NCBI GenBank assembly: GCA_913056125.1
Contig: CAJXNC010000012.1
Location: 18,861 to 82,860 of the forward strand
Length of the DNA: 64,000 bases
Source of the DNA: an uncultured Altererythrobacter sp.
GTDB taxonomy: Bacteria > Pseudomonadota > Alphaproteobacteria > Sphingomonadales > Sphingomonadaceae
Direction of reading: 5' to 3'
In this document: piece after piece, positions 4,738 through 29,437 of the stretch
Numbering within the stretch: the stretch's first letter is position 1
Layout: each line of letters starts with the position of its first letter
Translations under genes and position numbers: made by a program
Notes under the pieces: model-generated
Database searches by the model: none
What the model was told of the DNA's origin: nothing
What the model saw: the letters and a program-made list of their open reading frames with translations, nothing else

Positions 4738-5373
4738 ATGCCTTGGACCCGTGATGAAATGGCCGCCCGCGCAGCAAAGGAATTGCAGGACGGCTTCTAC
4801 GTCAACCTCGGCATTGGCATCCCGACCCTCGTCGCCAATCACATCCCCGAAGGGATGCAGGTCACGCTGCAGAGCGAGAACGGCATGCTCGGGATCGGCC
4901 CCTTCCCCTATCCGGACGAGGTCGATGCCGACCTGATCAATGCCGGCAAGCAGACGATCAGCGAGCTGGCCCATTCGGCCTATTTCGACAGCGCGGCCAG
5001 CTTCGCCATGATCCGCGGCGGGCATATCGACCTGACCGTGCTCGGCGCGATGGAAGTGTCCGAGGACGGCGACATCGCCAACTGGATGATCCCGGGCAAG
5101 ATGGTCAAAGGCATGGGCGGGGCGATGGACCTCGTCGCCGGGGTCAAGAAGATCATCGTGGTGATGGAGCATGTCTCCAAGCACGGCGATCCCAAGTTCA
5201 TCCCCGAATGCACCCTGCCGCTGACGGGCAAGAACGTGGTCGACATGATCATTACCGACCTTGCCGTGTTCCAGCGGCCCAATCACGGCCTGCCCTTCCA
5301 TCTGGTCGAACTCGCCCCCGGCGTGACGGCAGAGGAGGTCGCGGAGAAGACCACCGCACATTATGTGAGCTGA
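4738..5373 (+). CDS. scoB: Succinyl-CoA:3-ketoacid CoA-transferase subunit B
   Basis: 211-aa [17 protein letters not shown]...SENGMLG...[12 protein letters not shown] is the signature of 3-oxoacid CoA-transferase B subunits. Confidence 0.93.
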
Positions 5374-5410
5374 AAGGCGTCCACTAACGACGATTTGCGG
5401 ACATTGAGCC
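5326..5410 (+). repeat. Copy A of an imperfect ~85-bp direct repeat (functional scoB 3' end plus downstream sequence)
   Basis: Aligns by eye with 8251-8335. The last 16 codons ...[15 protein letters not shown] compare with ASEVVAEKTIAHYVS* (about 77% nucleotide identity over 48 nt). Similarity continues past the stop codon (GTCCACTAACGAC..TTGCGGAC versus GTCCGCTAACGAC..TTGCGGAC). Confidence 0.8.
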
Positions 5411-5564
5411 GAAAGGGCCGGATTCGCGGCGAATAATACAAACCGATACAAATTCGGCATGGTTTCGCCGTACGGATTGCTTGGCAAGCAATCTCATTAG
5501 CTGCATGATTGTTCCCAAACAAAGCATAACCGGGACTCATTGTCCGGAGAGGGAAAATCTAGTC

Positions 5565-8228
5565 ATGCGTAAACAGTCTCGTCTGCTTCTTGCTTCTTCA
5601 CTTCTGCCTGCCTCGCTGCTTCTGGGTGCTGGCGGTGTCCATGCACAGGACCATGCCGGAATGGACATGCCGGCTGACGAGGCTGCGTCAGCGATGCGCA
5701 CGCTGCGCTGGTCCGATGCATCGTCCTGGCCCGATGGCCGCGTGCCCGCTGCCGGCGCCGAAGTGACGATTCCCCGCGATGTCGAAATGGTTCTGGACGT
5801 CAGCCCGCCGGAACTGCGGAGCATCACCGTTCAGGGCAAGCTGACCTTCGCGGACGAGAGCGACCTGTCGCTGACCACCGAGTGGATCTATGTCCCCGGC
5901 GGTGAAGTGGAGATCGGCACCGCGGCCTCTCCCTTCCAGCACAATGCCACGATCACACTGACCGACAATGTGACGGGCGAAGACATCAACACCATGGGCG
6001 ATCGCGGCATCATGTTGCTGCGCGGCTCGCTCAGCATGCATGGCTCCACCAATCACACCTGGAGCAAGCTGTCCGCCACGGCAGAGGCCGGCGCAACCAG
6101 CATTGATGTACTTGATGCCTGGGGCTGGAACGTGGGGGACGAAATCGTCCTTGCCTCCACCGACTTCAATCCGCGTCAGGCCGAGCGTCGCACCATCACC
6201 GAGATTGATGGCAACACGGTCTCCTTTGCCGAGCCGCTGGAATACATGCATTTCGGCGAGGTCACCTTCGGGGTGGATCAGCGTGGCGAAGTCGCGAACC
6301 TGACCCGCAACATCAAGGTGCAGGCTTCCGAGGATGCCGCGGAAACCTATTTCGGCGGTCACATCATGGCGATGAGCGGATCCGAGCTCTATGTCGACAG
6401 CGTGGAATTCAACCGCATGGGCCAGCATCTGACGCTGGCACGCTATCCCATTCACTTCCACGTGCTGGGTGAAGGTCAGGGCATGTATGTCCGCAACAAT
6501 GCCATCCATGACACGTTCAATCGCTGCGTGACGGTGCATGGCACCAACAACCTTCTGGTCGAGAACAACGTCACCTACAATACTGTGGGTCACTGCTTCT
6601 TCCTTGAGGACGGGATCGAGCAGGGCAACCGCTTCGAGCGGAACGTGGCCATCCAGACCAAGTGCCATCCGACGCTCGATTGCGTGCCGATGAACATCGG
6701 GCCCAATGGCGAGGCCCTGGAGTTCGAAAATCGCGCGGCGCACATCCAGGCCACCTTCGAAAGCGAAAACGTCCTGCTGCCTTCGGACAATACGGTGGCG
6801 AGCTTCTGGATCACCAATCCGAACAACTACTTCGTCGACAATGTGGCCGCCGGTTCCGATCAGGCCGGTTTCTGGCTGTCTTTGCCCGAGCATCCCAATG
6901 GTGCCTTCCTTGGCACCGAAGAGAGCGCCAACACCTGGCCGCGCCGGACACTACTGGGCGAGTTCCGGGGTAACACCGCGCACTCGAACTACGACGGCTA
7001 CATGTTCGATCGCAACATTGCCGAAAACAACACTTTTGCGTTGGCCGGCGCCACCTACCTCCCGCTGGTCGATCCTTTCGACCCGATGAGCGAAGCGCTG
7101 GTAACGCACATCGAGGACCTGACCGCCTACAAGAACCGCAACCAGGGTTTCTGGGGCCGCGGTGAGCTTCTCGTCCTCGACAATTTCAGGTTTGCCGACA
7201 ATGCCATCGGCGTGACGCAATCCTCGGGGTCTTTCGGCACAGAGAAGTTCACCTCAATCGTGACCAATTCACTGTTCGTGGGCGAATCCGACAATATCGG
7301 CAATCCGACGACGGCGGAGGAAGTCGCCTATGGCCGCAGCCTGCCCAAGCCCATGATCCCGGACTATCCCATTCGTGCTTACGAATATTACGATTACCGC
7401 AATGAGGTGGAGGACACGACCTTCGTCAACTACGCGGACAATGATCTGCGCAAGACGGGTGCCCTGTCGTGGCTGATGTTCAACAGCTCGGGCGTTACCA
7501 CCGCAAGCACGATCAGAAGCGCGACATATATCAACGCCAAACCGGTCTATTTCCCGGACTACGATACAAGGTTCGACAACGACAACCGCGGCGGCGGCTC
7601 GTACCGAACCCTGTCGATCCTCGATCTTGACGGCACGACAACGGGCATCCCCAATTCCCACATTCTCCTCCATGACGGGGTGAGCAACTCCGTCGCCACC
7701 GATGAAAGCTGCACGATCCACCCCGACTGGAACGCCTCTGTCTGCGCTGGCGATGTCGGGCGCTTGAACTTTTCGCCGCCTCGCCAGGGCTTTGCATTCG
7801 GGCGTCCCGGTGCGCCGCGCCCCGAAGGCGTTACGTTCAACTTTGGCAATCTCGGCCCGCCGTCCGCGCCCCCTGCGCCCATCTTCCTGCGTCGCGGAGA
7901 CATCGAATTCGGAAATGGCAATGGAGCCACCGTGCGCGCCGGCACCGAAGTGCAGGTGATTACCGAAAGGGAAGAAGTCCCTCTCAGCATTAGCGAAATG
8001 GACCAGGGTTCGTGGATCATCTTCGAACTGCCGGGCTTTGCTACTGCGGACTCCGGAACGGAACTGAACAGCCTCGATGCACTGCGCGCAGCGAATGAGA
8101 CGTCCTGGTTCAGCGAAGGTGATAGCCTCTGGGTCAAACTCTATGTGGCCGATCCTCCGGAAATGCCCATTCGTCCCTTGAACATGCAGGCGGGCATTAT
8201 CGCCAGCAGAGAAGGGCGCGGCGGCTAA
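5565..8228 (+). CDS. Secreted G8-domain / right-handed beta-helix protein, CEMIP (KIAA1199)/TMEM2-like
   Basis: ORF frame 5481..8228, with the start moved to ATG 5565 (MRKQSRLLLASSLLPASLLLGAGGVHAQ signal peptide, GGAGAGGG upstream). G8 motif: LRWSDASSWPDGRVPAAGAEVTIPRDVEMVLDVSPPELRSITVQGKLTF. The core ARYPIHFHVLGEG...IHDTFNRCVTVHGTNNLLVENNVTYNTVGHCFFLEDG closely resembles the CEMIP/TMEM2 catalytic region. Confidence 0.8.
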   Translation: MRKQSRLLLASSLLPASLLLGAGGVHAQDHAGMDMPADEAASAMRTLRWSDASSWPDGRVPAAGAEVTIPRDVEMVLDVSPPELRSITVQGKLTFADESDLSLTTEWIYVPGGEVEIGTAASPFQHNATITLTDNVTGEDINTMGDRGIMLLRGSLSMHGSTNHTWSKLSATAEAGATSIDVLDAWGWNVGDEIVLASTDFNPRQAERRTITEIDGNTVSFAEPLEYMHFGEVTFGVDQRGEVANLTRNIKVQASEDAAETYFGGHIMAMSGSELYVDSVEFNRMGQHLTLARYPIHFHVLGEGQGMYVRNNAIHDTFNRCVTVHGTNNLLVENNVTYNTVGHCFFLEDGIEQGNRFERNVAIQTKCHPTLDCVPMNIGPNGEALEFENRAAHIQATFESENVLLPSDNTVASFWITNPNNYFVDNVAAGSDQAGFWLSLPEHPNGAFLGTEESANTWPRRTLLGEFRGNTAHSNYDGYMFDRNIAENNTFALAGATYLPLVDPFDPMSEALVTHIEDLTAYKNRNQGFWGRGELLVLDNFRFADNAIGVTQSSGSFGTEKFTSIVTNSLFVGESDNIGNPTTAEEVAYGRSLPKPMIPDYPIRAYEYYDYRNEVEDTTFVNYADNDLRKTGALSWLMFNSSGVTTASTIRSATYINAKPVYFPDYDTRFDNDNRGGGSYRTLSILDLDGTTTGIPNSHILLHDGVSNSVATDESCTIHPDWNASVCAGDVGRLNFSPPRQGFAFGRPGAPRPEGVTFNFGNLGPPSAPPAPIFLRRGDIEFGNGNGATVRAGTEVQVITEREEVPLSISEMDQGSWIIFELPGFATADSGTELNSLDALRAANETSWFSEGDSLWVKLYVADPPEMPIRPLNMQAGIIASREGRGG

Positions 8229-8236
8229 TGCACAAA

Positions 8237-8260
8237 CCTCCGACGCTACGGCGTCGGAGG
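8237..8260 (+). terminator. Stem-loop immediately after the G8 gene stop
   Basis: Perfect 10-bp stem CCTCCGACGC / GCGTCGGAGG with loop TACG. No clear U-tract follows, so terminator function is uncertain. Confidence 0.4.
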
Positions 8261-8335
8261 TAGTCGCCGAAAAGACCATTGCGCATTATGTGAGCTAAGT
8301 GGAACGTCCGCTAACGACCCAATTGCGGACTGTTG
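8251..8335 (+). pseudogene. Displaced, decaying copy of the scoB 3' end (copy B of the direct repeat)
   Basis: 8251-8298 reads ASEVVAEKTIAHYVS* with no upstream coding context. The downstream ~37 bp also parallel the sequence following the intact scoB. Confidence 0.75.
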
Positions 8336-8459: not shown

Positions 8460-9347
8460 ATGCGCGAAGAACTTAGGATTGCCGCAGCTCACTGGTCTGC
8501 ACCACGTGAACCTGGTAAACGCCGCTGGTGGCAATCTCCCACCATATTGCAGCACATAAACGAGGTCACATGTGGTAAGCCGCTAGTTGGAGCTTGGGCC
8601 GGCCTTATCGATCGGATGCGACTGGAAAGGCCTGAAGGGTGGGGGCGCGGCATCTCGGTTGGTTGCGGAGAAGGTGCCAAAGAAATCAGTCTCGCGCGAA
8701 TCGGACTAGTAGATCACTTCGACCTTTACGAGATCTCGGAAGTTCGGGCGGAAAAGGGACGCGCTCTCGCGGAAGCGCAAGGAGTGTCCGATAAGGTTGC
8801 CTTCCATACGCGCGACGCATTTCAAGAGGATCTTGGGCAATACGACCTAGTCTATTGGAACAATGCACTGCATCATATGCTCGACACGAACGATGCTGTG
8901 CGTTGGAGTCGAGACAGGCTCAAAAAAGGTGGCTCGTTTGTCATGGATGACTATGTCGGTCGCAACCGCCTGCAGTGGAGTAGCGCTGAGATGGATGTTG
9001 CTGAAAAGGTTCGCAGGCTGCTCCCGGAACGGTTTCTGAGAGACCCGCTCAATCTTGATCGCGAGCTACCTTTGCGCCCACTTCCACTTTCAGTTGAAGA
9101 GTGGATACGCCGCGATCCAACTGAGTGTGCCGACAGCGAGAACATCATTCCCGCAATAACTTCCTACTTTCCTGAGGCTGAGATAACCTACACCGGTGGG
9201 GTGATCTATCACTTAGCATTGAACGACGTTATTGCGCACTTTGATGAAGACGAGGATCGACACCTGCTCAGCGCGCTTTTGATGGCCGACCTAGCTTATG
9301 CGCGTGCTGGCCTCACGCACTATGCGGTTGTTATCGCGCGCCGATAG
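8460..9347 (+). CDS. Class I SAM-dependent methyltransferase (orphan, low-GC islet)
   Basis: 295-aa ORF with motif I ISVGCGEGAKE, DLVYWNNALHHM and post-II GGSFVMDDY. Lines I counted in this gene are ~52-55% GC, against 63-68% in neighbouring core genes. Confidence 0.75.
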   Translation: MREELRIAAAHWSAPREPGKRRWWQSPTILQHINEVTCGKPLVGAWAGLIDRMRLERPEGWGRGISVGCGEGAKEISLARIGLVDHFDLYEISEVRAEKGRALAEAQGVSDKVAFHTRDAFQEDLGQYDLVYWNNALHHMLDTNDAVRWSRDRLKKGGSFVMDDYVGRNRLQWSSAEMDVAEKVRRLLPERFLRDPLNLDRELPLRPLPLSVEEWIRRDPTECADSENIIPAITSYFPEAEITYTGGVIYHLALNDVIAHFDEDEDRHLLSALLMADLAYARAGLTHYAVVIARR

Positions 9348-18598: not shown

Positions 18599-19666
18599 TC
18601 ATTCCGTCATGGCCGCGAGGCGCTTGGCCTCGTCTTCGGCGGTCAGGGCATCGACGATCTCGCCCAGCGCAGTACCCGCCAGCACCTCGTCGAGCTTGTG
18701 CAGGGTCAGGCCGATGCGGTGGTCGGTCACGCGCCCTTGCGGAAAATTATAGGTGCGGATGCGTTCGCTGCGATCACCCGAGCCGACCATGGCCTTGCGC
18801 GCCGCAGCCTCTTCCCCCTGCGCCTCCTCGCGCATCTTCTCGTAGAGGCGCGCGCGCAGCACCTGCATCGCCTTTGCGCGGTTCTTGTGCTGGCTGCGCT
18901 CGTCCTGCTGGATCACCACGATGCCGCTCGGCAGGTGGGTGATGCGCACCGCGGAATCGGTCGTATTAACGTGCTGGCCGCCCGCGCCCGAAGCACGGTA
19001 AATATCTATTTTCAGATCATTATCGTTAATCTGGACATCCACCTCGGTCGGCTCGGGCAACACCGCCACCGTCGCAGCAGAAGTATGGATGCGCCCACCG
19101 CTTTCGGTCACGGGAACGCGCTGCACGCGGTGCACGCCGCTTTCCCATTTGAGCTTGGCGAAGACACCCTGCCCGGTGACGTTTGCTACGATTTCCTTGA
19201 AGCCGCCTGCATCCGAGACATTCATGCTGACCGGCTCGACCCGCCAACCCTGTTCGGCCGCGAACCGCTCATACATGCGGTAGAGATCGCCCGCGAAAAG
19301 CGCTGCCTCGTCGCCGCCCGTCCCCGCGCGGATTTCGAGCATCGCGGAACGGGCATCGGCCTCGTCCTTGGGCAGCATGGCAATGGCCAGCTCGTGCTCG
19401 GCTTCGGGCAGGCGCTGCTTCAGTTCGGCCAGTTCTTCTTCCGCCATGGCCTTCATCTCGGGATCGGAGAGCATCTCGGTAAGGCCGGAAATCTCCTCGC
19501 GAATGGAGGTCACCTCGGCGGCGACCTTGGCCACAGGCTCGAGTTCGGCATAATCGCGGCTCGCCTGCACGAAAGCCTCGCCTTCGAGCTGGCCCGAGGC
19601 CATGCGCGCTTCGAGTTCGGCAAAGCGATTGGCGATCTGCGCCAGGCGTTCGGCAGGAATGGACAT
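18599..19666 (-). CDS. prfA: Peptide chain release factor 1
   Basis: 355-aa ORF with PVT tripeptide context, the GGQHVN motif ([19 protein letters not shown]) and an RF1-type N-terminus. Confidence 0.97.
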
Positions 19667-20967
19667 CAGTCGCGGCGGATCGCCCAGCGCGCCTGGTCGC
19701 CCCGGCCCTGGCGCGACAGCAGGCCGAAGACATGATCGACAAGGTCGCCCAGCGGCACTTCATGCTGGTCGCCTTCGATAAGGTCCTTGAGATTGGCGAC
19801 ACCCTTGGCAAGCTCGTCATCGCCAAGGATCACCGCCACGCTGGCACCGGCATTATTGGCGCGCTGCATGCGCTTCTTCATATTGCCGCGATAATCCATC
19901 TCGGCACAGACGCCGTGGCGACGCAATTCGGCCAGCAGGCCCTCTCCGCGCGCCGAAGCGGCATCGCCCAGCGGAATAACTGCCACATCGAGAGGAGCCG
20001 CATCGCGCTCACCCACCAGCATGGCGAGGCGTTCGATACCCGCAGCCCAGCCGACCGCCGGCGTGGGATTGCCGCCAAGCGATTCCATCAGCCCGTCATA
20101 GCGTCCGCCGGCAAGCACCGTACCCTGTGCGCCCAAGCGGTCGGTGACGAATTCAAAGGCGGTGTGGCGGTAATAGTCGAGCCCGCGCACCAGCGCCGGA
20201 TTGCGCGTCCACGCCACGCCCGCGGCATCGAGGCCTGCGGTAACCGCGCCGAAGAAATCCTGCGCTTCACCGGAAAGGAAATCGTCGATCAGCGGCGCAT
20301 CCGCGACGAAGACCTTGTCGCGCGGATCCTTGCTGTCGAGAATCCGTAGCGGGTTCTTTTCGAGCCGTTCCTGCGAATCCTCTGAAAGTTCTCCGCGCAC
20401 GGCGGAAAAATACTCGATCAGGGCGGCGCGCCATGCCTCGCGGCTGTCGCCATCACCCAAGGTGTTGAGCTGCAGCGTCACGCCATCGGCAATGCCCAGT
20501 TCGCGCAAGAGCTGGTCGGCCATGGCGAGCAGTTCGACATCGGCTTGCGGCTCGCCCGCGCCGATGATCTCGGCATCGATCTGGTGGAACTGGCGGTAGC
20601 GGCCCTTTTGCGGACGCTCGTAACGGAAGACCGGACCATGCGTCGCCACCTTGAGCGGCACATATTGCTGCCAGCCATCGGTCAGGAAGGCGCGGCAGAT
20701 GCCGGCGGTGAATTCGGGCCGTAGCGTGAGGCTTTCTTCGCCGCGATCGAGGAAGGAATACATTTCCTTGGAAACGATATCGGTGGTCTCACCGATCGAA
20801 CGGGCGAAAACCTCGGTCTTTTCGAAGACCGGCATTTCCGCGCGGCGGAAGCGGTACAGCTTCCTCACGCGCTCGAACGTCTCCACCACGAAGGCGAAGG
20901 CCTCTGCTTCGGGTCCGAATATATCCTGCGTGCCGCGAATGGGACGCGGCGTTTCAACCTTGCTCAT
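19666..20967 (-). CDS. hisS: Histidine--tRNA ligase
   Basis: 433-aa [27 protein letters not shown] and GGRYDGL are class II HisRS motifs. Confidence 0.95.
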
Positions 20968-21005: not shown

Positions 21006-22118
21006 CTATTCAGCCGCCTCGAGGAAACGATCGTCAATCGAGGTATCGGCTTCCCAGCTCTTGAGTTCGGGCAAGACCGTTTCGGCGAACATGTACATGG
21101 AACGGCGCGCATCCTCCTGCGGCATGCCGCCATAATAGACATGCGGGAAGAAGCCCTGCGGGTTGTAGATGCCTTTCAGCTCCCACAGCCGGTCGAGGAT
21201 CTGCTGCGGCGTTCCGGTGATCGCGCCCTTGGAGAAGTTCTCGCAATAGGCGTCGATCTCCTCCGGGCTATGCAGCATCATCTTCTCGTAATGCTCATAG
21301 CCCTTCACATTGGCGAAGGTGCCCGGCTTGGCGAGCGAGTAGTTCTTGATCGCCGCGCGCATGGTGTTGGCAAGGTACATCTGCCCCTGCTGCTCGGCGA
21401 AATCGCCATCCTCATGGATGTAGAAATTGCCGCTGAGCATGGGTGGGGGCGGCGAGGAGCCGTCGCCATGCACCTCGTCCCAGATCGCCTTGTACTGGTC
21501 GGGCGGGGTTTCCTTACCGCGCTGCGGGATCATCAGCACCATGTTGCCGAAGCCATGACGGGCAGCGGCATACATGGAATTGCCTGACAGCGAGCCGCAG
21601 AACTTGCGCCCTTCGAAGCTCTTGATCGGACGCGGGCGCAATTCGGTGCGCGGGATCTTGCCGAACGCGCCCTCGCCCTCGATCACGCCGGTTTCCAGCG
21701 CCGGGATGAGCACGTCGAGGACATCGTTATAGAGATCGCGGCTCTTGTTCTGGTCGATGCCCAGGCCGGCAAATTCCTGCGGGGCAAGCCCGCCGCCAAA
21801 GCCCAGCAGCGCCCGGCCACCCGAAAGGATATCGAGGTTGATGATGTTCTCGGCCAGCCGCACCGGATTGTGCCAGGGCACGATGATGCACTGCGTGCCC
21901 AGCTTCACCCGCTTGGTGCGCCCGGCAATATGCGTGAGCAGGAAGAGCGGATCGTTCGACACCGAATAGTCGGAGAAATGATGCTCGGTAATCCACACCG
22001 AATCGAAGCCCAGCTCTTCGGCCAGGACGAGGTTCTCGATCTCTTCGCGCAGCAATTGCGCATCGTCGTAATTGTCTCCGCGCTGGTGCGCGAACCCACT
22101 GGCCAGGCCTACATGCAT
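21006..22118 (-). CDS. LLM-class (luciferase-like) flavin-dependent oxidoreductase
   Basis: Frame of ORF 21006..22496, with the start moved to ATG 22118 (GAGGAGTTGAGAGG directly upstream). LGFDSVWITEHHFSDY...RVKLGTQCIIVPWHNPVRLAE. Confidence 0.85.
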   Translation of the reverse strand: MHVGLASGFAHQRGDNYDDAQLLREEIENLVLAEELGFDSVWITEHHFSDYSVSNDPLFLLTHIAGRTKRVKLGTQCIIVPWHNPVRLAENIINLDILSGGRALLGFGGGLAPQEFAGLGIDQNKSRDLYNDVLDVLIPALETGVIEGEGAFGKIPRTELRPRPIKSFEGRKFCGSLSGNSMYAAARHGFGNMVLMIPQRGKETPPDQYKAIWDEVHGDGSSPPPPMLSGNFYIHEDGDFAEQQGQMYLANTMRAAIKNYSLAKPGTFANVKGYEHYEKMMLHSPEEIDAYCENFSKGAITGTPQQILDRLWELKGIYNPQGFFPHVYYGGMPQEDARRSMYMFAETVLPELKSWEADTSIDDRFLEAAE

Positions 22119-22313
22119 CCTCTCAACTCCTCTCCGCACACGGTGGGAGCCTGTAAAACGACTCTTCTCACCGCCATATTCACGAACGTTACAATGACTC
22201 GAAAGCGGCGGCGGCGCAATTGACCTGTGGCAATCCGGCGCAAGCTGTTCTAACGGCACGGCCAGTTGCGGGAGGGGATGCCGCCAGAGACTCGGGAAGA
22301 GCAGGGAGCATCC

Positions 22314-22856
22314 ATGCGTATCGAACACATTCCTACGGGGGACAATCCGCCCGAAAGCCTCAATGTCATCATCGAGGTGCCGACCGGCGGAGAACCGGTG
22401 AAGTACGAGTTCGACAAGAAGAGCGGCGCGCTGTTCGTCGACCGCATCCTGCACACGCCTATGCGCTATCCGGCAAATTACGGCTTCGTGCCGCACACGT
22501 TGTCACCCGATGGCGACCCGCTCGATGCGCTGGTGATCGCCCGCTCGCCCTTCATGGCCGGCTGCGTGGTGCGGGCACGGCCAATCGGCGTGCTCAACCT
22601 CGAAGACGAACATGGCGGCGACGAGAAGCTGATTTGCGTGCCGATCGATTCGACCTTCCCCTATTATTCGGATGTCGGCGAAACCAAGGACCTGCCCTCG
22701 ATCATCTTCCAGCAGATCGAGCACTTCTTCACCCACTACAAGGACCTCGAAAAGGAAAAGTGGGTCCGTGTCGGTGCCTGGGGCGATGCCGCGGAAGCGC
22801 GCAAGGTCACGCTCGAAGCGATCGAACGCTACGAGGCGAACAAGGCCGAGGGGTAG
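22314..22856 (+). CDS. ppa: Inorganic pyrophosphatase (family I)
   Basis: Frame of ORF 22266..22856, with the start at ATG 22314. NVIIEVPTGGEPVKYEFDK...YPANYGFVPHTLSPDGDPLDALV. Confidence 0.95.
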   Translation: MRIEHIPTGDNPPESLNVIIEVPTGGEPVKYEFDKKSGALFVDRILHTPMRYPANYGFVPHTLSPDGDPLDALVIARSPFMAGCVVRARPIGVLNLEDEHGGDEKLICVPIDSTFPYYSDVGETKDLPSIIFQQIEHFFTHYKDLEKEKWVRVGAWGDAAEARKVTLEAIERYEANKAEG

Positions 22857-22865
22857 GCAATACCC

Positions 22866-22900
22866 GGCCTTGCGCATTGGATTGATGCGCCGGCCTTTTT
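22866..22900 (+). terminator. Rho-independent terminator of ppa
   Basis: GGCC(TT)GCGCAT - TGGATTG - ATGCGC(C)GGCC followed by TTTTT. Begins 10 nt after the ppa stop. Confidence 0.7.
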
Positions 22901-22975
22901 GCGAATTTCTTGCGCAGGCAAGAATAGCTGCGCTCCGCAGGTGGACTTGGCAGTTCAATACTGCAATCTGTCGCC

Positions 22976-24970
22976 ATGTCCGACGTGTTCCTTTCCTACG
23001 CGCGCGCAGACCAGGCCAGGATCGAGAGTCTTGCCAAGGCTCTCGAAGAGCTTGGGCATAGCGTCTGGTGGGATCGCAATATCGAAGGCGGAAGCCATTT
23101 CGCCAAGGATATCGAGCGCGAAATACGGGCCGCAAGGGCGGTAGTCGTCGCCTGGTCCGCCCATTCGATCGAAAGCCACTGGGTCCTCGATGAGGCCGGA
23201 TATGCGCGAGACGAAGGCAAGATCGTGCCGATCACGCTCGACGGGACCCAGCAACCATTCGGCTTTCGCCAGGTGCAGGCACTCGATTTTTCCGAATGGC
23301 CCGCATCGCGGTCCGGCCTGGCCGGGCTGGAGAGGGCAGTCGCGCGGCTGATCGGCGAAGCGCCGCACGAACTGGTCGAGGCGCCCGCCGCTGCGCCGGG
23401 CAAGCGGTCGAACAAGCGCGCGCTGGTGCTTGGCGGGACAGTCGCGGCCGCGCTGCTGGTGGCAGGCGGCACCTATGTCGCAATGAACGGCACGACCGCC
23501 GAAACAGTGGAGGTGGCCAGCGAACCGGTGGCTTTGGCCATACTGCCTTTCAGCGTTTCAGGCGATGCGGGAGACGGCGACAACGCCCTCACAAACGGTT
23601 TCTCCGGCGCCCTCAATACCAATCTCTCCGGCCTTGCCGGCCTCGCTTTGGTCTCCAACACCTCCACCACCCAGCTTGCCGAGGAGGGGCTGTCGATTGC
23701 TGCAATCGGCGAGCGTCTCGGCGTGGACTATCTCGTCGAAGGCTCGATGCAATTCAGCGGAAGCGAGGTGGTCCTCGATATTGCGCTGATCGAGGCAAGA
23801 TCGTCGCGGCAGCTATGGAACGAGCGCTTCCGGGAAGATCGCGGCTTTCTCGATGTGCTTATGCTTCGTACCAGCAATGCGCTGGCATCCATGCTGCAAT
23901 CGCGCTTCGGGGTCGGCCAGGGCAGCACGATTGCGCATGTCGATGCGAATCCCCGGGCTTACGAGGCCTATCTGCGCGGAATGGAGCTGCTCCTGTCGCG
24001 GCAGTTCGGCGACAACCGGCGTAGCGCCTTTGCCCAGTTCCAGCGCGCCGTCCAGATCGATCCAGATTTTGCGGCGGCACAAGCCGCTTTGGGATTGACC
24101 CTTGCACTTGGCGATCCTGCCGCTTTTTCGCTGTCACCGTCCGAAGGCGAGGCGTTGGCGACTGCTTCTATCGATAACGCGCTGGAACGCGACCCGGGCA
24201 ATCTCATGGCGCAGGTGGCGCGCGAATTGATGCCCACGACCTTTGGCGGAGATGTCGGCGCAGCGATTGTCAATTTGCAAGAGCTCACCCAAGACCATCC
24301 CGACTATGCGCTCGGGCAATACGCACTCGGCCTGAACCTTACTGCCGTAGGTGAAAGTGAAGCTGCCTTGCAGCATTACCGGGAGGCACTGCGCATCGAT
24401 CCCGTCGATACAAGCTACAACAATTTCTACACATTATCGCTCGTCCTGGCGGGCAATTATGACGAGGTACGAAGCGCGGCGATGGAATGCACCGATTGCT
24501 TCCTCGTCAACGACGTATGGTATGGCGGGTTGATGTGGCTCGCGGACGACGAGCAATATCGATCCGATGCTTCCCTGTGGCGCGAACGGTGGACCACCAT
24601 TTTGCCCGAGGAAGAGCGGTTCCTGCCTTCTCTGGTTCTCCCAGCCTATCGGGAGAACAGGCCCCTTCCTGTGACGGCTGCGGAACTGGGTGTGAATGAC
24701 GTAGCACCAGTGATCCTGGCCGCTTTCGGCCAGTATGAGGACGCGTTATCCGTGCTGGGCCAACAGGGAGAGGAGTATCGCGGGCTGGACCAAACCGCGC
24801 GATTACTCGATTCGCCCAGTCCGGATTGGCCCGAAGAAGTGCGCGCCGATCCGCGCTATCACGCCGTGTTCGACGACCCCGTTTCGCAGAGCATTCTCGA
24901 GGAACGACGCAAACGCGGCAATTTACACAGTTTTCCGGTCTTTCCGGTGAGGCCGTACGAAGGCCCCTGA
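22976..24970 (+). CDS. TIR-domain transmembrane protein: N-terminal cytoplasmic TIR, one TM helix, periplasmic TolB-N-like module and TPR repeats
   Basis: 664-aa ORF. TIR_2 pattern: SDVFLSYARADQ...VWWDRNI...AVVVAWSAHSIESHWVLDEAGYA (putative catalytic Glu73). Basic GKRSNKR precedes the TM ALVLGGTVAAALLVAGGTYVAM. VALAILPFSVSGD...LVSNTST...IGERLGVDYLVEGS...LIEARSSRQLWNERF is the TolB-N-like module seen in TPR receptors. The C-terminus has TPR-like AYEAYLRG...FQRAVQIDPDF...HYREALRIDP. Confidence 0.85.
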   Translation: MSDVFLSYARADQARIESLAKALEELGHSVWWDRNIEGGSHFAKDIEREIRAARAVVVAWSAHSIESHWVLDEAGYARDEGKIVPITLDGTQQPFGFRQVQALDFSEWPASRSGLAGLERAVARLIGEAPHELVEAPAAAPGKRSNKRALVLGGTVAAALLVAGGTYVAMNGTTAETVEVASEPVALAILPFSVSGDAGDGDNALTNGFSGALNTNLSGLAGLALVSNTSTTQLAEEGLSIAAIGERLGVDYLVEGSMQFSGSEVVLDIALIEARSSRQLWNERFREDRGFLDVLMLRTSNALASMLQSRFGVGQGSTIAHVDANPRAYEAYLRGMELLLSRQFGDNRRSAFAQFQRAVQIDPDFAAAQAALGLTLALGDPAAFSLSPSEGEALATASIDNALERDPGNLMAQVARELMPTTFGGDVGAAIVNLQELTQDHPDYALGQYALGLNLTAVGESEAALQHYREALRIDPVDTSYNNFYTLSLVLAGNYDEVRSAAMECTDCFLVNDVWYGGLMWLADDEQYRSDASLWRERWTTILPEEERFLPSLVLPAYRENRPLPVTAAELGVNDVAPVILAAFGQYEDALSVLGQQGEEYRGLDQTARLLDSPSPDWPEEVRADPRYHAVFDDPVSQSILEERRKRGNLHSFPVFPVRPYEGP

Positions 24971-24980
24971 GAAAGTGAGG

Positions 24981-25095
24981 CCACTCCCGCCTGATCGGCG
25001 TGCTCACGCTCGATGACGAGCATGGAGGCGAGACCAAGGACCTGCCTCCTATCATCTTCCAGCAGATCGAACGCTACGAGGCGGAGAGGGCGTAA
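24981..25095 (+). pseudogene. Decayed duplicate of the ppa 3' part (two internal in-frame deletions)
   Basis: 24988-25095 reads RLIGVLTLDDEHGGETKDLPPIIFQQIERYEAERA*. The resident ppa reads RPIGVLNLEDEHGG[20 aa]ETKDLPSIIFQQI[35 aa]ERYEANKAEG*. The deletions are bounded in the resident copy by short repeats GGCGA and GATCGA. Confidence 0.85.
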
Positions 25096-25188
25096 GCCCA
25101 GGCACACCCGGACCCGGGCGTAGTCCTGCGAGAGGGAGTGCCCACACCCCCGTCTCGCATGACCCACACCTCTGCCCATTGCATACGC

Positions 25189-25218
25189 GCTACATTTGTG
25201 GCACGCTACAAATGTAGC
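25189..25218. promoter_or_regulatory. Perfect 11-bp inverted repeat GCTACATTTGT-N8-ACAAATGTAGC, BlaI/MecI-type operator (TACA/TGTA dyad)
   Basis: Read directly. Ends 20 nt upstream of the BlaI-family repressor start at 25238. Confidence 0.7.
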
Positions 25219-25237
25219 AGCCAAGTGTGGGGTGCCG

Positions 25238-25627
25238 ATGTTGAAGAAATTGCCACCGCGGGAACGGGAGATTGTCGACCTTCTATACGAGAGGGGAGAC
25301 CTGACTGTCACCGAGATATCAGAGGCCTTGTCCGGACAGCCTAGCGGCTCTGCCGTTCGGACCATGCTCAGCAGGCTCGAGCAGAAGGGCTTTGTCCGTC
25401 GCACCGATGGCCCCAAAGGCCACCTCTACCATCCGGCCGTACCCGACAACCAGGCACGCAAGACTGCCCTCAAGGAACTCGTACGCGTGTTCTTCCGTGG
25501 CTCTCCGGTTGGCGCTGCGACGGCGTTACTCGGCATGTCCGAACAGCTAGACGATGAGCAGCTTGACGAGCTTGAAGCGATGATTGCCCAGGCCCGAGCC
25601 GACAGGGCCAGGGAATCCGGGGAATGA
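25238..25627 (+). CDS. BlaI/MecI/CopY-family transcriptional repressor
   Basis: Frame of ORF 25196..25627, with the start at ATG 25238. MLKKLPPREREIVDLLYERGDLTVTEISEAL...SAVRTMLSRLEQKGFVRR is a winged-helix pattern of the BlaI family. Confidence 0.88.
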   Translation: MLKKLPPREREIVDLLYERGDLTVTEISEALSGQPSGSAVRTMLSRLEQKGFVRRTDGPKGHLYHPAVPDNQARKTALKELVRVFFRGSPVGAATALLGMSEQLDDEQLDELEAMIAQARADRARESGE

Positions 25628-26706
25628 TCGTTCTCCTCGCCGCGAAGTCCTTCGTGATTGCGGGCGCAACCCTGCTGATCCTGCGGCTTATGAGTGACCG
25701 CTCCGCCTCGGATCGAAGCTGGATCGCCCACCTCGGCCTGGCTGCAATCGCTGCGCTGCCGCTTGTATCAGCGCTGTTTCCGCCGCTGGAGGTTGCGAGT
25801 TCCTACGCATCGGCCCTGGCGCCGGCTGTTTCTGTTTCCTCCACCCAACTTGCCTCGTCAGTCTGGCCACAGACAGCGACAGACTGGCTGCTCCTTGCTT
25901 ACCTATTGCCGGCACTGCTTCTCATCGCGCATTTAATGTTGGCATTGCTCCGACTGGCGTTGCTGACAGAGCGTGCCCGCCCTGTGACCGACGATCGGTG
26001 GCTTGCGATTTTGTCCAGCGCGCAGCATCGGATCGGACTTTCGAAGAGTACTGCGTTGCTGGCCAGCGAAGGGATTGCATCGCCGGTGAGCTGGGGCGCT
26101 TTGCGGCCAAAGATCCTGCTCAATGCGGATGCCGTGGCGAGCCAAGAATGCGCGGAAGCCGTCGTGGCGCACGAACTGGCGCATATCGCGCGGGCTGACT
26201 GGCTGAAGCTCATCCTGGTCCGGCTGAGCGTGGCTCTGTTCTGGTTCAATCCATTGGCATGGATGTTGGCGCGAGAAGCGCACCAGCTGCGCGAGGAAGC
26301 GGCCGACGATGCCGTGCTGGCCGCGAATATCGAGGATACGGCCTACGCGAGCCTTCTGGTCAACACAGCCCGTAACCACGGCATCGGAATCGTTTTCGGA
26401 ACACATGGCGTCGCGCCAACACGCAACGCGCTTGCCCAACGCGTCAAAAAGGTTCTCGATCGCGACCTGAACCGCTCACCCGGAAGAGCATCCTGGGCAA
26501 CGGCTGTCGCCCTGTTTGCGGTTGCCCTGTCCACGCCGCTGATGACCCTGCAATTGACTGACACGACGCCCTCGCACCCGAATTCCGTGCTGTTTGCAAA
26601 GGGCGAGAATGCAGAAATCATCGTCTTCGAACTTCGCGCACCACACGCCAATCCCGGCTTCACACCGGCATCCTCGCAAGAGGACCGAGCAGGGGAAGAG
26701 GAGTAA
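25624..26706 (+). CDS. M56-family (BlaR1-like) membrane metalloprotease lacking a C-terminal penicillin-binding sensor domain
   Basis: 360-aa ORF overlapping the repressor gene by 4 nt. Has N-terminal TM helices and the HEXXH motif in VVAHELAHIARADW. It ends after one more TM helix and a ~60-aa tail. Confidence 0.85.
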   Translation: MIVLLAAKSFVIAGATLLILRLMSDRSASDRSWIAHLGLAAIAALPLVSALFPPLEVASSYASALAPAVSVSSTQLASSVWPQTATDWLLLAYLLPALLLIAHLMLALLRLALLTERARPVTDDRWLAILSSAQHRIGLSKSTALLASEGIASPVSWGALRPKILLNADAVASQECAEAVVAHELAHIARADWLKLILVRLSVALFWFNPLAWMLAREAHQLREEAADDAVLAANIEDTAYASLLVNTARNHGIGIVFGTHGVAPTRNALAQRVKKVLDRDLNRSPGRASWATAVALFAVALSTPLMTLQLTDTTPSHPNSVLFAKGENAEIIVFELRAPHANPGFTPASSQEDRAGEEE

Positions 26707-26713
26707 TCGCAGA

Positions 26714-27997
26714 ATGACCAGTTTCAGAATCACGGGCGCGAGCGGGATGTTGTATCGCGCGCTTGCCGCAGCCGTTCTTCTCCTCACTCCCATCGCTGCC
26801 GCCGCACAGGATGTGGAGCAGCGCGCGAGGGAAATTGTGGAAGTGCTGCATGGAGAGGCGGTCTACACTGACGTGTTCGACGACGTCTTTACCGCACGGA
26901 CTTCGCAAGAGCGGTTCTCTGCCATGTTTGACCCGGTAGCCGCCCAATACGGCCCTTTGGTCGGGCTGGAAGAAGTTGAAGCGACATCGCCAACCGCCGC
27001 CCGATTCGCCTTCCGTTTCGAGCGCGGGTTCGCTTGGGGCGCATTCAATCTTTCCGGCGAAGCGCCGTTCCGCGTGGCAGGGATCATTGTGAACAACACC
27101 GGCCCGGCCGATGACACAGCCGAAAAACTGTTGGCCGATTTCCAGGCATTACCGGGAGAGTCATCAATCCTGATTGCACCGCTAAATGGTGGTGCGCCTG
27201 TGCTGTCATACAATGCCGACCGGCAGCTGGGCATCGGGTCCGCCTTCAAGCTGTACATACTTTCCGCGCTCGCCCGCCAGGTTGCAGCAGGAGAGCGCAG
27301 CTGGAGCGATGTCGTGCCGCTCGACAGCAGCGGACCTTCGGGCATCACAAGCACGTGGCCTGAAGGCGGGCCGACCACGCTTCACACGCTCGCCACACAG
27401 ATGATCTCGGTCAGCGACAATAACGCCACCGACCAGCTTCTGTCATTGCTCGGGCGTAGCGCAGTGGAGGCAGAGGTTGCCGCATCGGGTCATTCCGATC
27501 CGGCACTGCTGGTTCCCTTCATGGCGGCGCGCGAGATGATCGCGCTGAAGATCGACGGCGATATCGACGCCTATCGCGCCGCAGATGCGGCCGGCCGCCT
27601 CGCCGCGCTTGAAGCCACGGCCGACAGTGAAATTGACATGTTCGAATTCATGATGACCTTTACCGGCAACCCCACGGCGCTCGATATCGAATGGCTGGTG
27701 TCGGGTGAGGACATGGCCAATCTCATGCGCCGGATCAGTGAGCTCGAAGACCCCACGGCACGCAGTATCATGGCAGTGAACACCAATGTTCCTGACCATT
27801 TGGCTGGGGATTGGCAATATTTCGGTTACAAAGGTGGTTCGGAACCCGGGGTGATCAACTTGAGCTGGCTGCTGCAGGATCATCACGGCGGATGGCATGT
27901 GGTGACCATGAGCTGGAACAACCCGGAGGCGGAAATCATCCTCCCGCAGTTCAGAGATCTCTCAGCGCGCGCCATCGCGCTGGCCCGGCCACAATAA
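26714..27997 (+). CDS. Secreted serine hydrolase with class A beta-lactamase fold (Cpe/LpqF-like two-domain protein)
   Basis: Frame of ORF 26594..27997, with the start at ATG 26714 (signal-like LYRALAAAVLLLTPIAAAAQ). SxxK = SAFK (GIGSAFKLYIL), SDN = SVSDNNATD, KTG-like = YKGGSEPG. Confidence 0.8.
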   Translation: MTSFRITGASGMLYRALAAAVLLLTPIAAAAQDVEQRAREIVEVLHGEAVYTDVFDDVFTARTSQERFSAMFDPVAAQYGPLVGLEEVEATSPTAARFAFRFERGFAWGAFNLSGEAPFRVAGIIVNNTGPADDTAEKLLADFQALPGESSILIAPLNGGAPVLSYNADRQLGIGSAFKLYILSALARQVAAGERSWSDVVPLDSSGPSGITSTWPEGGPTTLHTLATQMISVSDNNATDQLLSLLGRSAVEAEVAASGHSDPALLVPFMAAREMIALKIDGDIDAYRAADAAGRLAALEATADSEIDMFEFMMTFTGNPTALDIEWLVSGEDMANLMRRISELEDPTARSIMAVNTNVPDHLAGDWQYFGYKGGSEPGVINLSWLLQDHHGGWHVVTMSWNNPEAEIILPQFRDLSARAIALARPQ

Positions 27998-28054
27998 CCC
28001 AAGTCTCACTTTCAGGAGCGACGCTCGGGCGGAAATCGCCCACTTCCAGGGAAT

Positions 28055-29437
28055 TCACTCCACCGGCCGGTCCGGATCAAGCAGGTCGGCCTCGGCGGCC
28101 TTCGTGTCGGCCCGTTCCTCCTCGACCATGCGCGCGATCTCGTCGGCGGGCGCTACATCAGCTTCGGTGCTGTCGGGTGCAGGTGGGGGCGGTGCAGGGA
28201 CGGGAGCAGCTGGCGATGCAGCGGTGGTCAGTTCGGCCGACCCCGTCGGCAAGGGCGCGCTGCGCGGATCGAAACGGAGGCGGTAGATCGGTTCGGGTAT
28301 TGCGAATCCGGCCTGCTCAAGCGCATCCTTGACCGCAGGGATGGCGCGGCTCTTGGCCTTGTACCAGTCAGTCTTTTCCTGATCGATCCAGCCGAGAAAA
28401 CTGAGCACGATGTTGGAATCGCCGACCGCGACCACGCGGCCCTGCGGTTCGGGATCGTCGAGCACGAAGTCGAGCGAACGCAGCACGTCCACACCGAGGT
28501 GGCGCGCAGCGGTGGGATCGTCATCCGCATCGATCCCGATCTCGAAGTCGAAGCGGCGCTGCGGATTGCGCGTGTAATTGAGGATCACCGCCTTGAAGAC
28601 TTGCGCGTTGGGAATACGCAAATGATTGCCGTCGAGCGTCATCAGGATCGTCGCGCGGCTGGTCAGGCGGATGACGCGGCCTTCATGCTGGTCGATCACC
28701 ACCCAGTCATTGGCGCGGAAGGGCTGGCGCACGCTGAGCATCAAGGAGGCGACATAGTTCTCCACCGTGTCGCGCATGGCAAAGCCGAGCGCGATGCCGA
28801 TCACGCCCGCACCACCAAGCACCGCGCCAAGCAGCGTTCCGGCGCCAACCATGTCGAGCGCAATCACAATGCCGAAGATCACGAAGATGAACCGGATCGC
28901 GCTGGCGATCAGTTCAGCCAGGAAGACATTGGGAGTGATCCGGCGCCACAGGCCGGTAAGCGCGGCCAGCGCGTAGCCGAAGGCAGAAATAAGCAGCGCG
29001 GCTAGCAGTGCCGCGCCGAACAGCGGCAGGTTTCGGGTGAAGGTGGCGATCTTGTCGCCCAATGGCCCGAGGCCGAAGCCGCTATCGACCGAAACGTCCC
29101 GCTCGATATTGTTCTCGATCGTCACCACGCCACTGACGCGCTCGGCGATGGCGACAGCCCTGTCCGCCGCATCGGCATCTTCCACGGTCCCGGCAAGAGT
29201 GACAACGCCTTCCTCGACGCCGACCGTGACGCCGGTGAGGCTGGGCACCTCGGCAAAGATGCCCGCGATGCGATCCGAAATACGTTCATCCTGCCCGCTT
29301 TCGGGCTCAGCCTCGATCTCGCTCGGAGCCATGGTCGGCTGCGGCTCCGGCGCTTCGACCGGTAGGAGTGCGGCATGGGCCGCGCCCGCCCAGAAGAGCA
29401 GGAATGCAGCAAGCAGGTGGCGCAGGTAAATGCACAT
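28055..29437 (-). CDS. Mechanosensitive ion channel (MscS family) with N-terminal periplasmic BON domain
   Basis: 460-aa ORF with a signal peptide. BON-like VTVGVEEGVVTLAGTVEDADAADRAVAIAERVSGVVTIENNI. MscS core: ANDWVVIDQHEGRVIRLTSRATILMTLDGNHLRIPNAQVF. Confidence 0.85.
   Translation of the reverse strand: MCIYLRHLLAAFLLFWAGAAHAALLPVEAPEPQPTMAPSEIEAEPESGQDERISDRIAGIFAEVPSLTGVTVGVEEGVVTLAGTVEDADAADRAVAIAERVSGVVTIENNIERDVSVDSGFGLGPLGDKIATFTRNLPLFGAALLAALLISAFGYALAALTGLWRRITPNVFLAELIASAIRFIFVIFGIVIALDMVGAGTLLGAVLGGAGVIGIALGFAMRDTVENYVASLMLSVRQPFRANDWVVIDQHEGRVIRLTSRATILMTLDGNHLRIPNAQVFKAVILNYTRNPQRRFDFEIGIDADDDPTAARHLGVDVLRSLDFVLDDPEPQGRVVAVGDSNIVLSFLGWIDQEKTDWYKAKSRAIPAVKDALEQAGFAIPEPIYRLRFDPRSAPLPTGSAELTTAASPAAPVPAPPPPAPDSTEADVAPADEIARMVEEERADTKAAEADLLDPDRPVE

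Follow-up and report, generated by a model that had tools for sequence, protein, structure and literature searches.

Accessory and defence-like genes are often found between core genes without any mobile-element genes beside them, and the route by which they arrived is usually invisible. Elements that integrate into the 3' ends of genes leave a layout of gene, element and truncated gene copy, as do the fda-targeting integrative and conjugative elements (ICEs) of Streptococcus thermophilus; ICESt1, ICESt3 and the integrase-less relics called cis-mobilizable elements (CIMEs) are integrative elements that restore the 3' end of their target, which may be a protein-coding gene or a tRNA gene. Sequential displacement has been proposed for Vibrio cholerae's type VI secretion system (T6SS) effector-immunity arrays and for Rhs orphan 3' ends (PMC5361080), and homology-facilitated illegitimate recombination (HFIR) is a suggested pathway for such displacement (PMC5361080; PMC3240628). 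Here we describe a locus in a 64,000-nucleotide (nt) stretch of DNA from an uncultured Altererythrobacter sp. (contig CAJXNC010000012.1; the whole stretch is called the window), in which the intact inorganic pyrophosphatase gene ppa is followed by a gene for a TIR/TPR protein, by a short decayed copy of the 3' end of ppa, which we call ppa', and by a blaI-blaR1-hydrolase (bla) operon. We read ppa', tentatively and with slightly less than even confidence, as the scar of an integrase-free insertion that was anchored on one side by homology at the 3' end of an essential gene, the TIR gene being the incoming cargo and the bla operon the older one. The features on which this reading is built are the following:

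22314-22856, + strand: ppa, intact inorganic pyrophosphatase gene, 180 aa (PF00719, E 9e-57), upstream synteny kept
22584-22856, + strand: repeated segment, resident copy (last third of ppa), from pairwise alignments
22616-22681, + strand: CGGCGA direct repeats (22616-22621 and 22676-22681) bounding 60 nt absent from the fragment, from sequence reading and alignment
22715-22825, + strand: GATCGA direct repeats (22715-22720 and 22820-22825) bounding 105 nt absent from the fragment, from sequence reading and alignment
about 22866-22900, + strand: intrinsic-terminator-like hairpin with U-run 3' of ppa (folding -20.5 kcal/mol, z = -2.74)
22976-24970, + strand: cargo 1, TIR_2/TPR gene, 664 aa, from Pfam (stop codon 24968-24970)
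24994-25095, + strand: ppa', 5'-truncated, twice-deleted and diverged 3' end of ppa including the stop codon, from alignments and shuffles

An earlier interpretation made from the letters alone, referred to below as the sequence-only reading, had claimed that the DNA beginning 11 nt after the TIR stop codon repeats the last third of ppa, and had proposed a pairwise alignment as a check. The alignment, together with repeat finding, bore out the repeat and gave three blocks collinear with the 3' third of ppa, with E-values down to 6e-10: 22584-22621 matches 24994-25031 with 87% identity, 22677-22720 matches 25027-25070 with 91% identity (85% over 54 nt), and 22820-22846 matches 25065-25091 with 89% identity. 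The self-BLAST E-values of the three blocks were 6e-10, 4.5e-5 and 0.08, respectively. The gapped local score between ppa and ppa' was 132 in comparison to a maximum of 67 among 300 shuffles, and in the self-comparison of the 64-kb window the pair is among only three significant local direct repeats. The start of the copy had to be moved, as its left edge is sharp at 24993/24994, 23 nt past the TIR stop codon, and the 23 bases preceding 24994 are only 30% identical to ppa, that is, at the random level; such an abrupt end of homology is as expected of an illegitimate junction. On the right side, faint similarity may extend to about 25110. The overall layout of intact ppa with its terminator, TIR gene and 5'-truncated, decayed ppa 3' end, also part of the sequence-only reading, agrees with the alignment and with the hairpin.

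Two blocks of the resident copy, one of 60 nt (20 codons) and one of 105 nt (35 codons), are missing from ppa', and the losses are in frame, just as the sequence-only reading had stated. It had also placed short repeats at the deletion edges, which are indeed present in the intact gene, although the first of them is the 6-nt direct repeat CGGCGA rather than the 5-nt GGCGA that had been given, the 105-nt block being bounded by GATCGA; 6-nt repeats at the block edges are as expected from slippage or microhomology-mediated deletion. We treat the in-frame state of both deletions as incidental: each of the two repeats is a codon-phased motif, and two in-frame deletions have a prior chance of at least 1 in 9. 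The original repeat was at least 270 nt long, and the longest identical run between ppa and ppa' is now 20 nt, so that loss of the TIR gene by recombination between the repeats should be inefficient; the decayed state of the repeats should thus disfavour looping out of the TIR gene. Judged by its sequence, ppa' is a pseudogene remnant, because the 5' two-thirds and two internal blocks of the gene are gone, and its 37-aa translation gave no match in Pfam. We also considered ppa' as a functional micro-ORF or a regulatory element and rejected both, given no Pfam match and unremarkable folding (z = -1.5). A 31-aa GTG-initiated open reading frame (ORF) inside ppa' (25000-25095) is listed as protein P0241 in a public collection, and this ORF is almost certainly a pseudogene remnant.

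To place ppa' in its surroundings, the neighbouring features of the locus are needed:

19666-20967, - strand: hisS, a gene of the ppa locus
about 21006-22130, - strand: luciferase-like monooxygenase (lux-like) gene, between hisS and ppa
25190-25217, unstranded: operator-like inverted repeat of BlaI type, CTACATTTGT-N8-ACAAATGTAG, read from the sequence, upstream of blaI
25238-25627, + strand: cargo 2, blaI, from Pfam
25624-26706, + strand: cargo 2, BlaR1-type M56 gene, from Pfam
26714-27997, + strand: cargo 2, class-A-like serine hydrolase gene, from Pfam
28055-29437, - strand: mscS-like channel gene, convergent with ppa, then lptB and rpoN

The locus was compared with 160 related ppa loci, which were collected from 80 GTDB species representatives (Erythrobacteraceae and related Sphingomonadales) and 80 metagenome contigs and whose ppa genes are 85% to 95% identical to the one in the window. 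The backbone order is hisS-(lux)-ppa, convergent mscS, and lptB-rpoN. The upstream order hisS-(lux)-ppa is kept across the relatives, mscS converges on ppa in about half of them with a spacer that is commonly tens of bases, most of the remaining loci have no recognisable mscS and have lptB after ppa with a spacer of about 0.5 kb to 2.5 kb, and in a minority various other genes occupy the gap 3' of ppa. The TIR gene, blaI, blaR1, the hydrolase gene and a second ppa piece were each absent from the ppa locus in all 160 relatives, and no comparable collinear self-match was seen at any of these loci. Measured against these 160 loci, the TIR gene is an insertion, and the whole interval from ppa to mscS, 5.2 kb comprising the TIR gene, ppa' and the bla operon, is by the same gene-order comparison lineage-specific. 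Since the bla operon itself is lineage-specific cargo, ppa' sits in the middle of the insert within a 5.2-kb composite. The empty site predicted by the sequence-only reading, with ppa directly before the blaI operon, did not turn up among the 80 GTDB genomes and 80 metagenome contigs (0 of 160). When ppa and the TIR protein were looked up as exact proteins, every contig that came back was 100% identical to the window and so of the same strain.

The statement of the sequence-only reading that no integrase or insertion sequence (IS) is present held: ORF calling and Pfam revealed no integrase, IS or transposase domain in 22857-28054, where the only ORFs with domains were TIR/TPR, BlaI, BlaR1-M56 and beta-lactamase-like. 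The same interval matched no plasmid, Rfam gave no RNA family across 22000-28500, no inverted repeats bound the TIR gene, and no ppa-like sequence was found at the bla/mscS junction (27998-28054). The flanks 22857-22975 and 25096-25174 and the bla/mscS spacer had no match in the relatives or elsewhere in the window. The GC content at third codon positions (GC3) was 0.69 to 0.70 for all four cargo genes (0.70 for the TIR gene and 0.69 for the bla operon) in comparison to 0.75 to 0.81 for hisS, lux, ppa, mscS, lptB and rpoN. The lineage-specific cargos and the lack of mobile-element genes are, like the repeat and its microhomology-edged deletions, direct observations, and we regard ppa' as a real leftover of foreign-gene stacking at this site without mobile-element machinery.

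A direct repeat of the 3' end of an essential gene around a foreign gene makes integration guided by ppa homology the most economical route, and from these observations we infer as follows by which pathway the recombination ran, which of the two copies was the incoming one and in what order the cargos arrived. At the start, the bla module would already have lain between ppa and mscS in this lineage. Incoming DNA from a related bacterium would have carried the TIR-receptor gene just 3' of the donor's own ppa; the donor ppa part would have crossed over homologously with the resident ppa, and the far end of the donor DNA, about 23 nt past the TIR stop codon, would have been joined illegitimately inside the resident ppa at about codon 91. 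The pathway would be HFIR, and a circularised fragment entering by a single (Campbell-type) crossover would give the same product. That product would have the form A-B'-cargo-B-older cargo, in which ppa remains intact with the incoming 3' third and terminator, and in which the old 3' third of ppa is pushed downstream along with the older bla cargo. The displaced copy, free of selection, would then gain changes seen in no functional ppa and lose 60 and 105 nt via slippage between the 6-nt repeats. A one-sided insertion of this kind leaves the essential ppa whole, calls for no integrase, explains the sharp left edge of ppa' and puts the older bla cargo distal to the scar.

The differences between the two copies were examined for the origin of each. 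The results showed that 14 of 110 aligned positions differ between ppa' and the resident ppa, and that third codon positions account for 10 of these 14 (binomial p = 0.004), an excess that hints at divergence between two functional alleles and suggests that part of the divergence dates from a time when both copies were functional. No ppa gene of the 160 relatives has the amino-acid states peculiar to ppa' (RLIG for RPIG, T, D, P, ER), which, to judge from this distribution, are decay changes as expected after displacement. The sequence-only reading had proposed that DNA with a ppa-homologous arm integrated here; insertion of the TIR gene is upheld by the 160 loci, and either ppa copy may be the foreign one. 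Several results indeed weigh against the one-sided insertion with TIR as the incoming cargo. The identity of ppa' is about 88% to the resident gene and 87% to 89% to the best relatives, maximum chi-square scans gave a patchy signal along ppa with no clean breakpoint at or before 22584, and the nearest relative switches between successive 90-nt segments of ppa with no junction at 22584; given this equal distance and missing breakpoint, the foreign origin of the resident 3' third is putative. When polarised with the first 80 relatives, only about 2 to 4 of the differences look resident-derived, and a simple old duplication followed by decay may, on the alignments, fit almost as well. The TIR gene and the bla operon have the same GC3 and could therefore have arrived jointly as one block. 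Neither an empty nor an intermediate site was present among the relatives, all of which lie beyond the same species or genus, and the flanks past either stop codon match none of them. A donor search with a padded 40-aa ppa' peptide returned only the window's own 31-aa ORF call. At the other end of the gene, the first 90 nt of ppa (22314-22403) are 94% identical to Aurantiacibacter luteus (L007) in comparison to 73% to 89% for the rest, with 12 of the 13 first informative sites agreeing with this species; from its identity profile this stretch has the look of a short tract exchanged by recombination, with no relation to the 3' scar.

The same observations can be arranged, just as simply, in the mirror direction with ppa' as the leading edge of the bla segment, in which the recipient had ppa-TIR-mscS and a donor fragment consisting of a ppa 3' part, the bla operon and part of mscS recombined homologously within mscS, its left end being joined illegitimately just past the TIR gene; ppa' would then be a foreign passenger and the resident ppa native. 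This direction fits with ppa' being located midway through the lineage-specific 5.2 kb and directly upstream of the bla module, as it does with the missing breakpoint in the resident ppa at 22584, with the resident C-terminus (ERYEANK...), which resembles that of the nearest relatives, and with the upstream homology of the bla module to other modules, which stops at about 25175. It nevertheless requires a donor with ppa-bla adjacency, ppa followed by a bla module was seen in 0 of 160 relatives and the bla modules examined sit elsewhere, and the presence of a 3' end beside its own intact copy is explained no better than with TIR incoming. We hold the mirror direction to be rather unlikely. For the class of event, taking the two directions jointly, our confidence is about two-thirds. 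Duplication within the genome, i.e., a tandem duplication of the ppa 3' third with the downstream cargo, deletion of the second cargo copy and decay, would need no foreign arm; the unique changes of ppa' are decay-like, and two consensus-like sites in blocks 1 and 2 could be explained by synonymous drift of the resident ppa. This route takes more steps, including precise loss of a 2.1-kb copy, leaves the first arrival of the TIR gene unexplained, and does not lead one to expect the third-position excess, which decay alone should not produce; the same layout with a different cargo at a second locus of the window (see below) argues for a process linked to insertion, and internal duplication appears improbable to us.

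We give equally little credence to a site-specific integrative element that entered at the ppa 3' end with a replacement 3' end in its attachment site and later lost its integrase as a CIME-like relic, possibly once two elements had accreted in tandem. The layout of gene, element and truncated copy is typical of elements integrating into gene 3' ends, and ICE-type elements share with the ppa locus an intact gene with an element-borne 3' end, cargo, and a truncated direct-repeat copy; the copies of ppa also retain identical runs of 19 to 20 nt. Unlike such elements, the ppa locus has no integrase or other recombinase domain in 22857-28054, its repeat, which once extended over at least 270 nt, is about 12% diverged and so does not resemble the short identical core of an attachment (att) site, and the repeats are not at both outer ends and do not enclose the whole insert. 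Tandem accretion would predict a third copy at the bla/mscS end, where none is found, and no such element occurs at the other ppa loci (0 of 160). An IS or transposon is likewise a poor match, with no transposase, no inverted repeats round the TIR gene and a duplication of at least 270 nt. Campbell-type integration also leaves a direct duplication round the insert, the gene being present once complete and once truncated at its 5' end, as seen here, but it needs a circularised 2.4-kb fragment, and no trace of a replicon or plasmid is present at the ppa locus; on sequence alone its product is the same as that of HFIR. Chance similarity or an assembly artefact has nothing to recommend it except the short length of ppa', and with three collinear blocks reaching an E-value of 6e-10, a score twice that of the best shuffle, and an independent Logan assembly of SRR6201726 that is 100% identical across ppa', it is effectively refuted and deserves next to no credence.

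In comparison to the described systems, the proposed one-sided insertion at ppa resembles HFIR in having a single homologous anchor, a putative illegitimate join at the other end, no integrase or IS, and an abrupt end of homology. Two properties that define HFIR inserts are seen here, namely that the insert is absent at the same locus of relatives (0 of 160) and that one of its boundaries lies in sequence homologous to the recipient, here the ppa 3' third with its diverged copy. The differences are that HFIR was defined experimentally with donor and recipient known, whereas the ppa scar is a natural footprint, and that laboratory HFIR events usually delete recipient DNA, whereas the ppa scar retains a duplicated and displaced 3' end of the anchor. 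The locus has in common with the T6SS and Rhs arrays that a conserved gene lies upstream, followed by a new 3' end with cargo and by a displaced 3' end with older cargo, that the stacking order reflects history, and that an integrase is lacking. Polymorphic toxin domains make up the 3' ends in those arrays, and the orphans that are kept there (immunity genes) have a use, orphan 3' ends at Rhs and contact-dependent inhibition (CDI) loci coming with cognate immunity genes; at ppa, by contrast, a housekeeping gene serves as the anchor, its two 3' ends are homologous to each other, and the one that was displaced simply decays.

A second locus with this architecture lies in the window, 17 kb from the ppa scar, and consists of the following features:

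4738-5373: CoA-transferase gene, a core gene
5332-5402, + strand: copy 1, final 13 codons of the CoA-transferase gene with the stop codon and some 30 nt of 3' flank
5481-8228, + strand: cargo, gene for a G8/CEMIP beta-helix protein, 915 aa, from Pfam
8257-8330, + strand: copy 2, displaced CoA-transferase 3' end, 28 nt past the G8 stop codon

The segments 5332-5402 and 8257-8330 are 78% identical over 74 nt (E 9e-8), with a local score of 65 in comparison to a maximum of 34 among 500 shuffles, and this pair is another of the three significant local direct repeats in the window. The two peptides compared are one of 13 residues and EVVAEKTIAHYVS*. On the 3' side of 8330 there follow a GC3-poor methyltransferase gene, ORFs of unknown function, an MFS transporter gene, a DUF418 gene and a convergent metK, and in one relative (L075) the CoA-transferase gene lies directly beside metK, the two being convergent. 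Both loci thus begin with a core gene, which is followed by the nearest cargo, the displaced 3' end, further cargo and a convergent core gene. The same architecture at a second locus indicates that such an insertion probably took place more than once in this genome, a repetition that the two matching layouts make probable. Exactly on the left edge of the displaced copy, 8238-8260 forms a perfect 10-bp hairpin, CCTCCGACGC-TACG-GCGTCGGAGG, which may be the G8 gene's terminator stem or else a feature of the junction. The methyltransferase gene (8460-9347) has a GC3 of 0.54 in comparison to 0.75 to 0.85 for neighbouring core genes and is probably a recent foreign acquisition.

The ppa scar and the second locus together form a concrete natural footprint of one-sided homology-anchored insertion, in which the order of the stacked cargo is hinted to record history. 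The practical value is modest: on this reading the scar separates acquisition of the TIR gene from that of the bla operon, and it gives a search pattern for similar scars in other genomes. The type of event is already known and ordinary for specialists, and its occurrence twice in 64 kb adds slight interest. A broader generalisation, which we consider quite unlikely, is that in this lineage 3' ends of core genes at convergent junctions serve as anchors at which accessory cassettes of about 2.4 to 2.9 kb are captured and stacked without an integrase. If it were true, the cassettes would be the TIR receptor, the G8-domain protein and possibly the bla operon, each capture would displace the previous 3' end and the older cargo, the new gene would be locked in once the displaced arm had decayed, and the whole would be a housekeeping-gene version of the Rhs and T6SS orphan arrays; delivery as fragments of gene-transfer-agent size or by transformation is pure speculation.

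For cargo 2, the results showed that the bla module is common in the family, with hydrolases 73% to 76% identical, and that the modules of three other loci examined lie in three different genomic contexts. The BlaI/MecI-type operator-like palindrome is about 96% kept in two of these modules (L084 and L085) and 97% in the third (L086), and it marks the conserved left part of the module. At the left edge, the window has in common with the other modules only the operator/promoter stretch from about 25175 on; the upstream sequence that the other modules share is absent from the window, and homology ends at about 25175.

The protein encoded by cargo 1 consists of a TIR_2 domain (residues 1-110), a hydrophobic stretch, a region labelled TolB-like, and TPR repeats, in this order; the TolB-like label of the middle region comes from sources describing homologues. 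The TIR domain aligns with PdTIR and AbTIR, including Glu73 of the W..E motif. The hydrophobic stretch at about residues 155-178, judged by eye, has the look of a membrane helix. The closest homologues are 50%, 38% and 33% identical, and elsewhere they are found between unrelated housekeeping genes or in tandem arrays, with no flanking duplications at the homologues of the other genomes (L082 and L083). As TIR homologues and bla modules both occur in unrelated contexts, the two cargos behave as roaming accessory genes. The C-terminal portion recurs in homologues whose heads are of Ser/Thr kinase, adenylate cyclase or winged-helix type and not TIR, which suggests a receptor family with interchangeable heads, TIR being the output here. 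PADLOC gave matches at the level of the TIR domain only (residues 1-107, E 3e-10 to 9e-5), and no partner genes of TIR anti-phage systems (Thoeris and similar) were found nearby; membership in a PADLOC defence system was therefore rejected, there being neither a full-length match nor partner genes. In Sphingomicrobium marinum (L083, 6018-11489), three tandem TIR/TPR paralogues follow one another head to tail without any spacer, each next start coming immediately after the stop codon before it.

Near the left end of the window, a direct repeat of 105-418 and 921-1234 was also found, with 70.6% identity over 320 nt and the copies 816 nt apart; one copy lies within ORF 635-1906 (423 aa, no Pfam match) and the other upstream of it near the window edge, and the two are probably tandem paralogues.

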